In this document: in pieces, positions 3,942 to 7,864 of the stretch
Layout of the letters: each line of letters opens with the position of its first letter
How positions within the stretch are numbered: the first letter of the stretch is position 1
NCBI GenBank assembly: GCA_032128375.1
Contig: JAQBGU010000191.1
Location: forward strand, 1-18,288
Direction: 5' to 3'
DNA: 18,288 nucleotides
Source of the DNA: Deltaproteobacteria bacterium
Lineage (GTDB): Bacteria > Myxococcota_A > UBA9160 > SMWR01
The notes under the pieces: model-generated
Seen by the model: only the letters and a program-made list of their open reading frames with translations
Databases searched by the model: none
What the model was told of the DNA's origin: nothing
Made by a program: the position numbers and the translations under genes

Positions 3942-4349
3942 ATGGCAACGGAACTCACCATAGGCGAGCTCGCCAACGCGGCGGGCGTGCCCACCTCGAC
4001 TGTTCGCTACTACGAGCGGGCCGGAATTCTCGCGCCGAGCGGGCGGAGTGCGGGGAACTACCGCGTCTATTCCGAGGCCGAACTCGAACGACTGCGGTTC
4101 ATCCGCGCAGCACAGGCCACTGGTTTCACGCTGGACGACATCAAGGCGCTTCTTCGGCCTGCAGCCTGCGGCAAGGTGCAGGGTCTTATCGAGGAACGCC
4201 TCGGCCAGGTTGCCGAGCGGATGTCCGAGCTGAGGCGCGTGCAGCGTGTTCTAAAGGGCGCTCTCGCCGAATGCCTCGAACACGAGGAGAGCGGGCGCTG
4301 CCGGGTCATCGAGACTCTAAGTGCCGCGGCCGGCCGTCGAACCTCCTAG
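3942..4349 (+). CDS. merR: Hg(II)-responsive MerR-family transcriptional regulator
   Basis: MerR HTH LTIGELANAAGV..STVRYYER.G...NYRVY and GFTLDDIK.LL. Its only three Cys (C76, C111, C120) have the same 35/9 spacing as C82/C117/C126 of Tn21/Tn501 MerR. It lies directly upstream of mer genes. Confidence 0.88.
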   Translation: MATELTIGELANAAGVPTSTVRYYERAGILAPSGRSAGNYRVYSEAELERLRFIRAAQATGFTLDDIKALLRPAACGKVQGLIEERLGQVAERMSELRRVQRVLKGALAECLEHEESGRCRVIETLSAAAGRRTS

Positions 4350-4539
4350 ACCCTATGGAGTGACCGGCTCCATTCGCAAAACTCGTGATCAAGAAGAAAC
4401 GAGTACGGGCCCGTAGGGCCCTTTGATCGCGGGTTGCCGCCGAGGCGGTAGAGCCCTGTCCTCGAGGCCTCTCCAGCCCAGCGACTGAGCCCGTAACTGC
4501 CGGCAACCGCTCGGCTTTGCGGATTCTTCCAGAAAGCCC

Positions 4540-4571
4540 TTTACCTTGCACCCAGGTTCAAGCCGTAAAGT
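4540..4571 (+). promoter_or_regulatory. MerR-type long-spacer promoter/operator of the mer structural operon
   Basis: -35 TTTACC (4540-4545), 20 bp spacer, -10 TAAAGT (4566-4571). The dyad CTTGCACC-CA-GGTTCAAG (4545-4562) fills the spacer. 4543-4564 is 15/22 identical to the dyad at 3903-3924. Confidence 0.7.
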
Positions 4572-4611
4572 CTAGCAGTGGTGGGGATTCGCGCGCGCCA
4601 CGAAGAGAGGA

Positions 4612-5256
4612 ATGGAGTTGATGAACAACGAACCCGAACCGAGCGGGCGATGGGCGACAGGTGGGGCGATTGCAGCCGCCGTGGTCGCGTCATCGTGCTG
4701 CATGCTTCCCCTCGTTTTTGGCGCCGCCGGAATTTCAACCGTTGCGCTAGCCGGCGCGTTTGAGTCCGCACGGCCCTACATGCTCGGCGTCACCATTGTC
4801 CTTCTCGGTCTGGGCTTCTACTACAACTACTTTCGAAAGGCTGCGTGCGAGCCTGGCGACGCGTGTAAGACCCCGCGCCCGGGCCTTCGACGCATGAATC
4901 GGACGATGCTCTGGCTCGCCACGGTGGCGGTCGTCGCGCTCGCGTTCTTTCCCTCCTACGCGTTCGTGTTCGCGGGTAGTGAAACCCCGGCGGTTTCCGG
5001 CGTTGAATCCATCGACTCCAAGCAGGTGGTTCTCGAAGTCAGCGGTATGACGTGCGAAGCCTGCACGGTGAGCGTGCAAAACGAGCTCGCCGCAGTCCCT
5101 GGGGTTCTTCGCTCCGAAGTCGACTTTCGAGCCGGGAAGGCGGTCGTCTTGTTTCAAGCTGACTCGGCTCCGAGCGCGAGCGATTTGCTGTCTGCGGTCA
5201 GCCGCGCTGGATACTCGGCAGTTGTCGCCTCTTCCGCTCGGGGAGCTGAGGGATGA
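4612..5256 (+). CDS. merT: Mercuric transporter MerT fused to a C-terminal HMA (MerP-like) domain
   Basis: ASSCCMLPLV in TM1, RPY, a cytoplasmic CEPGDAC pair, a third TM, then an HMA domain VSGMTCEAC...VPGV...AGY. The stop overlaps the merA start (ATGA). RBS GAGAGGA; ATG 4621 is an alternative start. Confidence 0.9.
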   Translation: MELMNNEPEPSGRWATGGAIAAAVVASSCCMLPLVFGAAGISTVALAGAFESARPYMLGVTIVLLGLGFYYNYFRKAACEPGDACKTPRPGLRRMNRTMLWLATVAVVALAFFPSYAFVFAGSETPAVSGVESIDSKQVVLEVSGMTCEACTVSVQNELAAVPGVLRSEVDFRAGKAVVLFQADSAPSASDLLSAVSRAGYSAVVASSARGAEG

Positions 5257-6686
5257 GCGATTGCTGTGCGAACGACCTGACGGACGAGCGGTCATTTGAC
5301 CTGGCCGTCATCGGTGGCGGCTCGGCAGCGTTCGCCGCGACGCTCCGCGCGACTGAACTCGGAGCCACCGTGCTTCTCGTAAACGAGGGCACGATTGGTG
5401 GCACCTGCGTGAACATCGGCTGTGTTCCCTCGAAGACGCTCATCCGAGCTGCCGAGAACTTCCACTGGAATCAGCTTTCTCGGTTTCGTGGGGTCAAACC
5501 GAGTCCTGGAAGCATCGACTTTCGGTTGCTGATGGAGGAGAAGAACGCACTCGTTGAGAGCCTTCGGACAGCCAAGTATGCAGACGTTCTCTCACGCCTC
5601 TCTGGTGTTCGCTTTCTAGAGGGCAAGGCGAAGCTCACCGGACGGAACGAATTGGAGGTGTCGGGGGAGCGCTTCGAGGCCGGGAAGATGGTCATTGCCA
5701 CCGGCACGCGACCCGTTTTTCCGGCCATCCCTGGACTCGCCGAGGCGGCTGTCTGGGACAGCACGCAGGCGCTCGATGCGCCGTTTCTTCCGGAGCGACT
5801 CATCGTGCTCGGGGGGAGTTATATCGCGCTCGAGCTCGGTCAGATGTTTTCTCGCCTGGGAAGCGAGGTCACGATTCTGCAGCGCAGTGCACATGTGCTC
5901 TCAGGAGAAGACCGCGACGTCGCAGAGGGTGTGACGCGGTTTCTCCGCGAAGAGGGAATCGAGATTCTTACCGGACAGAAGCTGCAGTCGGTCGAACGGC
6001 TGGGCGACGGTTTCGTAGTGGATGCAGCGGGAAACGCCGAGGTTGTCGCCCACAGCGCTGATGCCGTGGTATCAGCTCTTGGACGTCGTGCGAACACCGA
6101 AGCGCTCGAACTCGATGCCGGTGGCGTAGAACTCGACGCTCGCGGCTTCGTTCGCGTAGGCGACGACCTCGAGACGACTCAGGCGGGTATCTACGCCGCG
6201 GGCGACGTCCTGGGTGAGCCTGCCTTCGTCTACGCCGCAGCCTATGAGGGCTCACTTGCCGCCGAGAACGCACTCTTGGGAGAGGCTAAGAGGCGCGACT
6301 ACACAGCGATTCCGTGGGTGGTGTTCACGGACCCGCAGGTGTCCGGAGTGGGCCTCAGCGAGCGCCAGGCCGCCGAGTCCGGAATCGAGGTGGACGTCTC
6401 GGTGCTCCCCCTTGAACACGTTCCGCGGGCCGTCGCGGCGCGTGACACGCGAGGATTCGTAAAGCTGCTCCGTAAGAGCGGAACGGACCATCTGGTTGGT
6501 GCTCGGATTGTGGCTCCGGAAGGCTCAGAGCAGATAATGGAAGCGAGCTTGATGATTCGGTTCGGACTTCCTGTTTCCGAAGTCGCCAAGCACTTCCACC
6601 CCTATCTAACGCAAGGCGAAGCAATGAAGCTCGCCATGCTCTCCTTTGACACGGACGTGGAGTCTCTCTCGTGTTGCGCCGGCTAA
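5253..6686 (+). CDS. merA: Mercuric reductase without an N-terminal NmerA domain
   Basis: FDLAVIGGGSAAFAA, redox centre GGTCVNIGCVPSK, FVYAAA, VVFTDPQV, FHPYLT and the MerA-diagnostic C-terminal LSCCAG. Confidence 0.97.
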   Translation: MSDCCANDLTDERSFDLAVIGGGSAAFAATLRATELGATVLLVNEGTIGGTCVNIGCVPSKTLIRAAENFHWNQLSRFRGVKPSPGSIDFRLLMEEKNALVESLRTAKYADVLSRLSGVRFLEGKAKLTGRNELEVSGERFEAGKMVIATGTRPVFPAIPGLAEAAVWDSTQALDAPFLPERLIVLGGSYIALELGQMFSRLGSEVTILQRSAHVLSGEDRDVAEGVTRFLREEGIEILTGQKLQSVERLGDGFVVDAAGNAEVVAHSADAVVSALGRRANTEALELDAGGVELDARGFVRVGDDLETTQAGIYAAGDVLGEPAFVYAAAYEGSLAAENALLGEAKRRDYTAIPWVVFTDPQVSGVGLSERQAAESGIEVDVSVLPLEHVPRAVAARDTRGFVKLLRKSGTDHLVGARIVAPEGSEQIMEASLMIRFGLPVSEVAKHFHPYLTQGEAMKLAMLSFDTDVESLSCCAG

Positions 6687-6973
6687 TCCGCTCCGTCGCC
6701 GTCGTGCTGGTGCTGTCGCTCGGCGCGAACTCACACTCTGCGGATGCGTCCGATGCCCTTCAGACCTGGGTCTTTAGCGTCGAAGGCATGACGTGAGGCG
6801 GATGCGTCAAGTCGGTCCGTGAGGCCGCTCTGAGTGTTGAGGGCGTCACAGAAGCAGATGTGAGCTTGCGCGAGAAGACGGCGAGGGTCACGGCGCGAGA
6901 GGGAACGACGTGGGATGCGGTCAAGAGAGCTATCGAGTCGGCCGGATACCGCGCGGAGCTAGCGGATGAATGA
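6671..6973 (+). CDS. Exported MerP-like HMA-domain protein with in-frame TGA (predicted selenocysteine U42, UxxC motif); absent from the ORF track
   Basis: GGAG (6659-6662) precedes GTG 6671. Translation: MLRRLIRSVAVVLVLSLGANSHSADASDALQTWVFSVEGMT*GGCVKSVREAALSVEGVTEADVSLREKTARVTAREGTTWDAVKRAIESAGYRAELADE. TGA 6794-6796 occupies the first Cys of GMTCxxC. The N-terminus looks like a signal peptide. The start overlaps merA and the final stop overlaps merF. Confidence 0.88.
6801..6838 (+). promoter_or_regulatory. Candidate bacterial SECIS element for the MerP-like UGA
   Basis: Hand-folded. Upper stem CGGUC (6813-6817)/GGCCG (6823-6827), loop CGUGA (6818-6822), bulged U6812, AG/CU pairs, lower stem GAUGCGUCA (6801-6809)/UGAGUGUU (6831-6838). 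The loop begins 21 nt after the UGA. Confidence 0.7.
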
Positions 6974-7205
6974 ACGAAACCTGCTTGGAATCGGAATTAC
7001 TGGAACGATCGTTGCCGCGCTTTGCTGCTTCACGCCAGTTCTCGTGGTCTTGCTTGGCGCGGTCGGCCTGTCAGCGATTGTTGGGTGGCTCGACTACGTG
7101 CTGCTGCCTGCACTCGCGGCCTTCGTTGCACTGACGGTCCACGCCGTTACGCGGCGCCGGCGAGCGCTGGCGGCTTCTTCGTCAGCTGAGGTCGGGAGCG
7201 AATGA
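6966..7205 (+). CDS. merF: Mercury transport protein MerF
   Basis: GTIVAALCCFTPVLVVLLGAVGLSAIVGWLDYVLLPAL is a near-consensus MerF sequence. The stop overlaps the merB start (ATGA). Confidence 0.93.
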   Translation: MNERNLLGIGITGTIVAALCCFTPVLVVLLGAVGLSAIVGWLDYVLLPALAAFVALTVHAVTRRRRALAASSSAEVGSE

Positions 7206-7864
7206 CGCGGCTGCTAGACGCCGCGAAGAAGGCCTGGGCGAGCGAATACGCCGGGCTTTCGGAAGCGGAGATAGAGCAGCGCGTTCGAGGATTTGGCGCG
7301 ATGGTGATAGGCATTGCCGAAGACGGCGTGCTTTGTGTCGAGCGTTTCGCCGAACTCATGGGGCTCGAGACTGCGGTGGCAAGCAAGGTCTTTGCCGGGC
7401 TCTTCGCAGCTGGAATGCAGAAAGACGAGGCCGGAAACATTGTCGGCGCAGCCCTGACTGCGCGCGAAACGCCGCACAAGATTCGCGTGGCCGGTAAAGA
7501 ACTCTACGCCTGGTGCTCACTCGACGCGCTGTTCATCCCCGGGCTTCTCGGCGAAACGGCTGACATCGAATCGACGTGCCCGAGTAGCGGCGATGCGATT
7601 CGGCTAACCGTCTCGCCTGAGGCCGTGGGAAGAGCCGAGCCGTCCTCGACCTGGCTCTCTGTGTTTCTCCCGGGCGGCTCTTCGAGACAGCTAGGACCGG
7701 CGAGCCCGACGTGAAGCCAGATGCACTTTTTCCGCGCCCGGGAGGCGGCGGAGGAGTGGGTGGTGGGGCGAGCGGCAGTCGTAGCACTCAGCCTCGATGA
7801 GGCCTTCGAACTCGCCCAGGTGCATTGGGTGAATCGCGCCAAGCGGCTGCCTACACCACGATAG
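7202..7864 (+). CDS. merB: Organomercurial lyase MerB with in-frame TGA (predicted selenocysteine U171 at the catalytic Cys159-equivalent), 220 aa
   Basis: LYAWCSLDALFIP (C105/D108 = C96/D99 of R831 MerB) and ESTCPSSG (C117-equivalent). After TGA 7712-7714 the frame continues SQMHFFRAREAAEEWVVGRAAVVALSLDEAFELAQVHWVNRAKRLPTPR to TAG 7862-7864, matching the MerB C-terminus FC159CHVHFFAS...AEDW...VSVHEAFGLG. Confidence 0.92.
7724..7758 (+). promoter_or_regulatory. Candidate bacterial SECIS element for the merB UGA
   Basis: Hand-folded. CACUUUUUCCGCGCC (7724-7738) pairs with GGCGGCGGAGGAGUG (7744-7758) with one bulged U and one bulged G. Loop CGGGA (7739-7743) begins 24 nt after the UGA. Confidence 0.72.

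Follow-up and report, generated by a model that had tools for sequence, protein, structure and literature searches.

Our analysis of an 18,288-nt stretch of DNA from a Deltaproteobacteria bacterium of the Myxococcota_A (positions 1 to 18,288 of contig JAQBGU010000191.1 of assembly GCA_032128375.1, forward strand, called the window below) suggests that merB, the last gene of a mercury-resistance (mer) operon, is an intact organomercurial lyase gene in which the UGA at codon 171 is very probably decoded as selenocysteine (Sec), and that a Cys105/Asp108/Sec171 site would thereby replace the Cys96/Asp99/Cys159 site of known MerB enzymes. Genes of this kind (Sec-merB) mark a large clade from marine sediments that is cut short at the UGA in the records and gene calls that we examined. 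What appears to be new, judging from sequence, is a Sec form of the canonical type of MerB, encoded in a mer operon that would also hold a Sec-containing MerP.

The table-11 open reading frame (ORF) 7202..7714 encodes 170 amino acids and is terminated by TGA 7712-7714, which is the sole interruption of the frame between 7202 and 7864. Past this codon the frame stays open until TAG 7862-7864, giving a read-through protein of 220 residues, 49 of which follow residue 171 (U171) and begin with S-Q-M-H-F-F-R. An earlier reading of this DNA made from the letters alone (the sequence-only reading) had already pointed out that the ORF track stops merB at 7714 and that reading through adds U-S-Q-M-H-F-F and a 49-residue C-terminus, and had proposed that the TGA is in register with Cys159 of R831 MerB, with Cys105 and Asp108 as the Cys and Asp partners of the Sec. 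A phmmer alignment to the solved MerB chains of the PDB (1s6l/3f0p family) bears this out, placing residue 171 on Cys159, Ser172 on Cys160, Cys105 on Cys96 and Asp108 on Asp99. Cys126 is the equivalent of Cys117. In an alignment of eight Sec-clade sequences (A2), Cys105, Asp108 and Cys126 are all invariant, as is the Q-M-H-F-F-R encoded 3' of the TGA. Set against the catalytic definition of MerB (R831b numbering), the gene therefore has equivalents of Cys96 and Asp99, and a TGA codon in place of a codon for Cys159.

Reading through the TGA also restores the family match. Pfam MerB (PF03243) aligns to the read-through protein with 105.7 bits (cut-off 27) over positions 1-122 of its 126, to the 170-aa product over positions 1-73 only (72 bits), and to the 49-aa tail by itself over positions 87-122. 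An AlphaFold2 model built from the eight-sequence alignment had a mean predicted local distance difference test score (pLDDT) of 90.3, and a Foldseek comparison of this model with the PDB returned 11 matches at E <= 0.001, each a chain of MerB or MerB2 (best E 3.8e-16), with template-modelling (TM) scores of 0.57-0.85 for ten MerB chains and of 0.71-0.85 for the crystal chains. Profile alignment and structure prediction, the two computational checks that the sequence-only reading had proposed, thus both return a MerB.

A search of contigs with the single MerB protein gave only two loci, and the usable set came from a search of related genomes together with a metagenome scan that was seeded with an alignment of Sec-merB sequences and returned 80 loci. 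Among 60 related genomes, MerB homologues were found in four, and all five matches that cover the column of residue 171 (50-75% identity) have an in-frame TGA, surrounded by the motif G-P-A-S-P-T-(TGA)-S-Q-M-H-F-F-R. From 401 sampled genomes of the phylum, the window's own included, came two more TGA-merB genes and one distant Cys form. Altogether we examined 91 merB loci, two of which do not reach the Sec column; in the remaining 89 the codon is TGA in 49, TGC in 25, TGT in 15 and nothing else, although the TGA share is inflated by the seeding of the scan with Sec-clade motifs and is not a natural frequency. The restriction to TGA or Cys codons, a homologue pattern on which the sequence-only reading had staked its proposal, indicates that the position of the TGA is not due to chance, and the TGA is kept in loci reaching down to about 36-45% identity.

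To place these genes we inferred a maximum-likelihood tree from 71 rows, no two of them identical, in which the Sec column was written as C throughout, leaving out exact duplicates and rows that do not span query residues 62-205. The window's clade comprises 30 rows, all of them TGA forms, with a Shimodaira-Hasegawa-like approximate likelihood ratio (SH-aLRT) support of 100, and its nearest outgroups are Cys forms. Two more TGA groups fall elsewhere in the tree, so that three label changes are needed; a single origin of Sec in MerB would nevertheless remain compatible with the well-supported branches. One of these groups is a second, separate TGA MerB clade from marine metagenomes (L062-L069 and L072) with the motif G-P-Q-C-A-T-U-T-G-M-H-F-F (CxxU), and no mer genes were detected in the flanks of its members, which reach up to 5 kb. 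The column also holds a TGA in L091:564, a third and isolated case that sits on a long branch.

Downstream of the merB UGA lies a hairpin that we consider a candidate selenocysteine insertion sequence (SECIS). Its upper stem (7732-7738 paired with 7744-7751, with one bulged G) is well kept among relatives and closes the apical loop CGGGA (7739-7743), the sequence of 7732-7751 being CCGCGCC-CGGGA-GGCGGCGG. The loop begins 27 nt past the U of the UGA, a spacing near that of the selD element of the same genome, and the feature thus has what would be expected of a SECIS stem-loop, namely a hairpin with a CGKGA loop 27 nt past the UGA. A scan of the window with Rfam at gathering thresholds gave no match, and hence no curated SECIS family.

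Comparison of 32 unique Sec regions in a gap-free alignment showed that 83% of cells are paired in the proposed structure versus 38-56% when the partners are slid, with a covariation score of 0.167 versus at most 0.095 in the slid controls. The seven upper-stem pairs each form in 25-32 of the 32 sequences. At pair 28-38, 13 of them have G-C and another 13 have U-A, a swap that tracks one subclade and so represents few events, and that alters amino acids too (Ala to Ser, Ala to Asp). The loops are mostly CGUGA (18 sequences) or CGGGA (10), with two CGUGC and two others. Minimum-energy folds place the apical hairpin at the same register in 26 of the 32 unique Sec sequences versus 6 of 36 Cys sequences. 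Against 300 synonymous versions of each sequence, generated with the codon usage of the gene it came from, the Sec forms had a mean z of -1.47, with 10 of 32 in the lowest 5%, and the Cys forms a mean z of -0.22, with 2 of 36, p-values from this test overstating the case because the Sec sequences are related. In the separate marine Sec clade the hairpin position is occupied by another stem (GCUCC/GGAGC) with the same loop.

The genome to which the window belongs (6.2 Mb in 249 contigs, 91% complete) appears equipped to decode UGA as Sec. We found SelA, SelB and a tRNA-Sec that scores 68.7 bits, above the Rfam cut-off, and that ARAGORN calls tRNA-SeC(tca). The selD gene (G000:C140:3308-4234, L023) has an in-frame TGA of its own at G-G-U-A-R-K, followed by a hairpin (GGGCCUG-GUU-CAGGCCC) with its G-U-U loop about 31 nt past the UGA; selA, selB, selC and selD, the set looked for as a sign of Sec decoding, are therefore all present. 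SelA was also found in all six relatives with a TGA-merB and was not found in the one with a Cys form, which says little since 53 of 61 relatives have SelA regardless, and we dropped this co-occurrence as an argument.

A number of observations weigh against our interpretation. The protein reaches the cut-off of neither NCBIfam model for MerB (140 against 193 bits for the equivalog NF009710 and 130.6 against 200 for the exception NF033555). The lower stem of the hairpin (7724-7730 with 7752-7758) is mostly unpaired in relatives. RNAalifold, run on the 32 Sec regions, did not recover the proposed hairpin and favoured a different, weak structure (-2.23 kcal/mol), and a single-sequence fold of 7700-7790 is no more stable than its shuffles (z 0.15), a comparison that tells little in GC-rich coding DNA. 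We retained the hairpin because of its pair counts, the slid controls, the recoding test and the contrast between Sec and Cys forms. Among RNA sequencing runs, none that contains the stretch was listed. To these should be added the points already made about the seeding of the scan, the swapped pair, the relatedness of the Sec sequences and the wide occurrence of SelA.

The explanation that comes closest to ours holds that Sec is indeed inserted, and that the in vivo role is another one, either action on another organometal, as proposed for SaoL, a MerB-like selenoprotein, or service mainly as a tight Hg(II) binder for hand-off or sequestration. We regard it as unlikely, since the catalytic Cys and Asp and the structural Cys are all retained, the fold is that of MerB, the sister clades are ordinary Cys-MerBs, and the cassettes carry a MerR-type regulator and MerT/MerP/MerF importers, with MerA directly present in the window. 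At the same time, the scores below the NCBIfam equivalog cut-offs leave room for it, as does the distribution of merA, which, of the nine Sec-clade loci where 3.5 kb or more of sequence precedes merB, is present in just two (the window and L032; L020, with a shorter flank, also has it). The usual Sec-merB cassette is merR-merTP-(merF)-merB, and loci without merA nearby include L030, L031, L043, L045, L050, L052 and L054. MerA scoring above its curated cut-off was found in two of five related genomes with Sec-merB, and the other three, G025, G051 and G200, have completeness values (in ascending order) of 77%, 89% and 98%. Moreover, Haft and Gwadz suggest that the Sec ligand in SaoL may shift metal or substrate preference (bioRxiv 10.1101/2022.07.06.499078; this and the other papers cited here are drawn on in excerpt).

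That the TGA is a true stop, so that merB would be truncated, in decay or split in two (170 aa plus 47 aa from the ATG of Met174), is what gene callers and public records imply by ending the protein there. Among the best 120 protein-database clusters, 112 (137-195 aa) end one residue before the Sec column, mostly in ...G-P-A-S-P-T, while six full-length clusters (41-47% identity) have Cys at that column, and public records name members of the clade 'hypothetical protein' or 169-173-aa 'organomercurial lyase'. We nonetheless find a true stop highly improbable, as 49 loci retain the TGA, with strongly conserved residues behind it and no other stops or frameshifts, and as the truncated product would be without an essential catalytic residue (PMC10114901). 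Only two differences in merB were seen in contigs from other runs, at 7417 and 7501, and both are third codon positions, which also counts against a true stop. The ATG two codons past the TGA could suggest a restart, but the same Met is present in the Cys forms, which makes Met174 a residue of the family, not a start.

Suppression or an altered code that would put Cys, Trp or Gly at the UGA, or an assembly error, has nothing specific in its favour beyond being the generic alternative for any in-frame TGA, and can hardly be maintained, given that ordinary TGA stops terminate merTP, merP and merF of the same operon, so that the code is not reassigned, that the genome has the full Sec machinery and a Sec-selD, that the hairpin is kept only in TGA forms (26/32 Sec versus 6/36 Cys folds, and the recoding test) and that the merB TGA is covered, without any difference, in contigs of the same study assembled from two further runs. 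Pseudogene, assembly error and recoded TGA were accordingly rejected.

Besides merB, the operon holds a second candidate selenoprotein gene. The sequence-only reading overlooked a merP-like gene with a conserved UGA at 6671-6973. Once its TGA is read through, this frame fills the 280-nt 'gap' that separates merA from merF. The encoded protein has a signal-peptide-like N-terminus, an HMA domain (55 bits) and the metal-binding motif G-M-T-U-G-G-C, in which U42 would be encoded by TGA 6794-6796. A candidate hairpin has its loop 24 nt past the U of this UGA and sits inside a 35-nt block shared unchanged with L032, where the flanking codons differ at synonymous sites. Both of the closest merA-merP arrangements found retain the TGA; they are L032, a 392-kb metagenome contig (MerP 74% and MerA 88% identical to those of the window), and L112, from a genome of the same order (MerP 61-64%, MerA 78%). 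In both, merP directly follows the merA core, and a CGGUC/GGCCG stem capped by CGUGA or CGUGC comes after its TGA. MerPs more distant than these have Cys at the Sec position. The codon is also unchanged in a run of a second study. Across the 60 relatives, Sec-merP was found only in the window's own genome, and the wider sample of 401 genomes added one (L112). Conservation of the merP UGA thus suggests that the operon encodes two selenoproteins, MerB and MerP.

The operon runs on one strand in the order merR-merTP-merA-merP-merF-merB (Table 1), and the start codon of merB (ATG 7202) overlaps the stop codon of merF (ATGA). The regulator gene lies on the strand of the structural genes, separated from merTP by a 262-nt spacer (4350-4611), unlike the merR of Tn21 and Tn501, which is divergent from the structural genes; a consensus scan found no sigma-70-like promoter. 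Beyond the mer genes, the neighbours are TauD-type and PutA-type genes, and the NCBIfam matches of four mer neighbours included no Sao model.

Table 1. Features of the mer operon in the window (positions count from the first nucleotide of the window)
Feature	Position	Strand	Remarks
MerR-family regulator	3942..4349	+	
merT-merP fusion (MerTP), 214 aa	4612..5256	+	ordinary Cys motif G-M-T-C-E-A-C
merA, catalytic core without NmerA, 477 aa	5253..6686	+	TIGR02053, 519 bits vs cut-off 454
merP-like gene, 100 residues, GTG start	6671..6973	+	in-frame TGA 6794-6796; stop TGA 6971-6973
Candidate SECIS hairpin of merP	6813..6827	+	stem CGGUC/GGCCG; loop CGUGA 6818-6822
merF, 79 aa	6966..7205	+	101.5 bits vs cut-off 50; start overlaps merP, end overlaps merB
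merB, read through one UGA, 220 aa	7202..7864	+	stop TAG 7862-7864
Cys105 of MerB, codon TGC	7514..7516	+	equivalent of MerB Cys96
Asp108 of MerB, codon GAC	7523..7525	+	equivalent of MerB Asp99
In-frame TGA of merB, residue 171, read as putative Sec	7712..7714	+	aligned to Cys159 of R831b MerB
SECIS-like hairpin of merB	7724..7758	+	pair counts, slid controls, recoding test, Sec/Cys contrast

MerA, which the sequence-only reading had described as being without an NmerA domain, indeed matches only positions 93-560 of the 560-position model PRK13748 and has no HMA domain. Its C-terminus carries S-C-C-A-G and its N-terminus reads M-S-D-C-C (5253-5270). The N-terminal Cys pair is kept in L032, and a single Cys is found in L112; this short start could represent a minimal N-terminal tail that receives Hg.

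In the published scheme for MerB, Cys96 binds R-Hg+, Cys159 coordinates the metal as Asp99 gains a proton, and Asp99 then protonates the carbon; the product Hg(II) is kept by both cysteines and Asp99 until it is handed on, and Cys160 is dispensable (PMC10114901). For the enzyme of the window we propose that SelB and Sec-tRNA(Sec) would bind the hairpin at 7732-7751 and insert Sec, that the Cys105 thiolate would first capture R-Hg+, and that the selenolate of residue 171 would coordinate the Hg next, whereupon Asp108 would protonate the carbon and R-H would leave. The Hg(II) would be held on the resulting S/Se/O site until MerA, through its C-terminal Cys pair (S-C-C-A-G), or cellular thiols take it over. 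At neutral pH most of a selenol is in its ionised form, and its hold on Hg is tighter than that of a thiol. Given this ionisation, the proton for Asp108 would come from water, not from residue 171. The softer selenolate ligand would be expected to make capture and Hg-C activation faster, and the tighter Hg-Se binding may turn product release into the slow step. Selones that mimic MerB have been reported to cleave Hg-C bonds faster than thiones do (PMC11639659).

The sequence-only reading had suggested that a selenolate could alter the rate of Hg-C protonolysis or the range of substrates, and had linked a product-release problem to the absence of an NmerA domain from the partner MerA. Product release is a fair question for the whole Sec-merB clade rather than a peculiarity of the window's MerA. 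In five Sec-merB cassettes without merA, a scan of 27 of the 48 listed ORFs found no other gene for an Hg acceptor, the ORFs scanned encoding efflux pumps, regulators and unrelated enzymes (hydroxylases, TauD). In the window itself, merTP-merA-merP-merF-merB would form a translationally coupled block with merB last, the periplasmic MerP of which also appears to use Sec. A broader possibility, which we put forward tentatively and to which we give distinctly less than an even chance, is that the operon represents a selenium-dependent form of Hg detoxification with Sec at U42 of the periplasmic MerP and U171 of the cytosolic MerB, and that genes of this kind make up a major hidden pool of methylmercury (MeHg) demethylation potential in marine sediments, perhaps with a kinetic edge at the very low MeHg levels of such sediments. 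If true, selenium and mercury cycling would for the first time be linked at the level of an enzyme in a resistance pathway, and the Sec-MerB pool would be invisible to merB surveys that use standard gene calling and require Cys159.

Among the closest known systems is SaoL (NF040728). It is a MerB-like organometallic lyase and a selenoprotein encoded by anaerobes in the SAO locus of nine genes (bioRxiv 10.1101/2022.07.06.499078), and it shares with the MerB of the window the fold, the Pfam family and a Sec at the Cys159 column beside equivalents of Cys96 and Asp99. The two differ in motif (C-U in SaoL, P-T-U-S in the window) and in setting, which for SaoL is the nine-gene SAO neighbourhood and for the window a mer operon with MerA, and by score the MerB of the window stands much nearer to canonical MerB (140 bits with NF009710) than to SaoL (27.1 bits with NF040728, whose cut-off is 140); it is a relative of MerB proper that matches neither curated model. 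SaoL has been argued to serve metabolism in anaerobes and not resistance, and in the excerpted text Haft and Gwadz catalogue no mercury-resistance selenoprotein and consider reliance on Sec an odd design for resistance (bioRxiv 10.1101/2022.07.06.499078). A Sec-MerB beside MerA in a textbook mer operon runs counter to this published expectation.

Compared with canonical MerB (from plasmid R831b/Tn21-type broad-spectrum mer operons; 1S6L, 3F0O, 3F0P), the protein of the window has the same domain, equivalents of Cys96, Asp99 and Cys117, the same operon partners and the same fold (TM 0.77-0.85 to 3f0o, 3f2g and 3fn8). It differs in having a Sec codon for Cys159 and Ser for Cys160, in being only 26-30% identical in structural alignments and below the NCBIfam equivalog cut-offs, and in having a partner MerA that has no NmerA domain. 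Sec-containing metal carriers have also been listed, including MerT-family proteins (PF02411, C/SxxU), a MerT/CopZ fusion (NF045683) and a UxxU protein (NF041115) (PMC13188914). Like the MerP of the window (G-M-T-U-G-G-C), these have Sec for a metal-binding Cys in mer-type proteins; they are carriers and do not correspond to the lyase. The MerP of the window scores 48.7 bits against a cut-off of 95 with NF041115 and has UxxC, not UxxU.

A full-text literature search returned SaoL as the only MerB-related selenoprotein in print, the journal version of the SaoL study and its supplements, which might mention the clade, lying outside that search. Consistent with this, the excerpted reviews of prokaryotic selenoproteins list only SaoL under MerB, their other Hg-related entries being MerT-type and UxxU carriers, HgcA and HgcB (PMC9312934, PMC13188914). 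Surveys of MeHg degradation have typically worked from Prodigal proteins and kept MerBs only if they had Cys96, Asp99 and Cys159 (PMC12484752). As gene calls end before the Sec column and Cys159 is demanded, the Sec-MerB clade is dropped or misnamed in such surveys, and the annotation remedy is simple, namely to permit read-through of UGA at the Sec column of MerB. Natural Sec/Cys pairs within one MerB subfamily would also make a clean system for the effect of selenium on Hg-C protonolysis and on Hg(II) hand-off.

Two partial copies of Sec-type merB were seen as well. One (L017, G051:C9:29239-29406) covers residues 154-209, keeps the TGA and lies about 7 kb from an intact copy on the same contig, and the other (L016, G001:C501:9327-9527) covers residues 45-111 only; both are likely to be decayed spare copies of merB.

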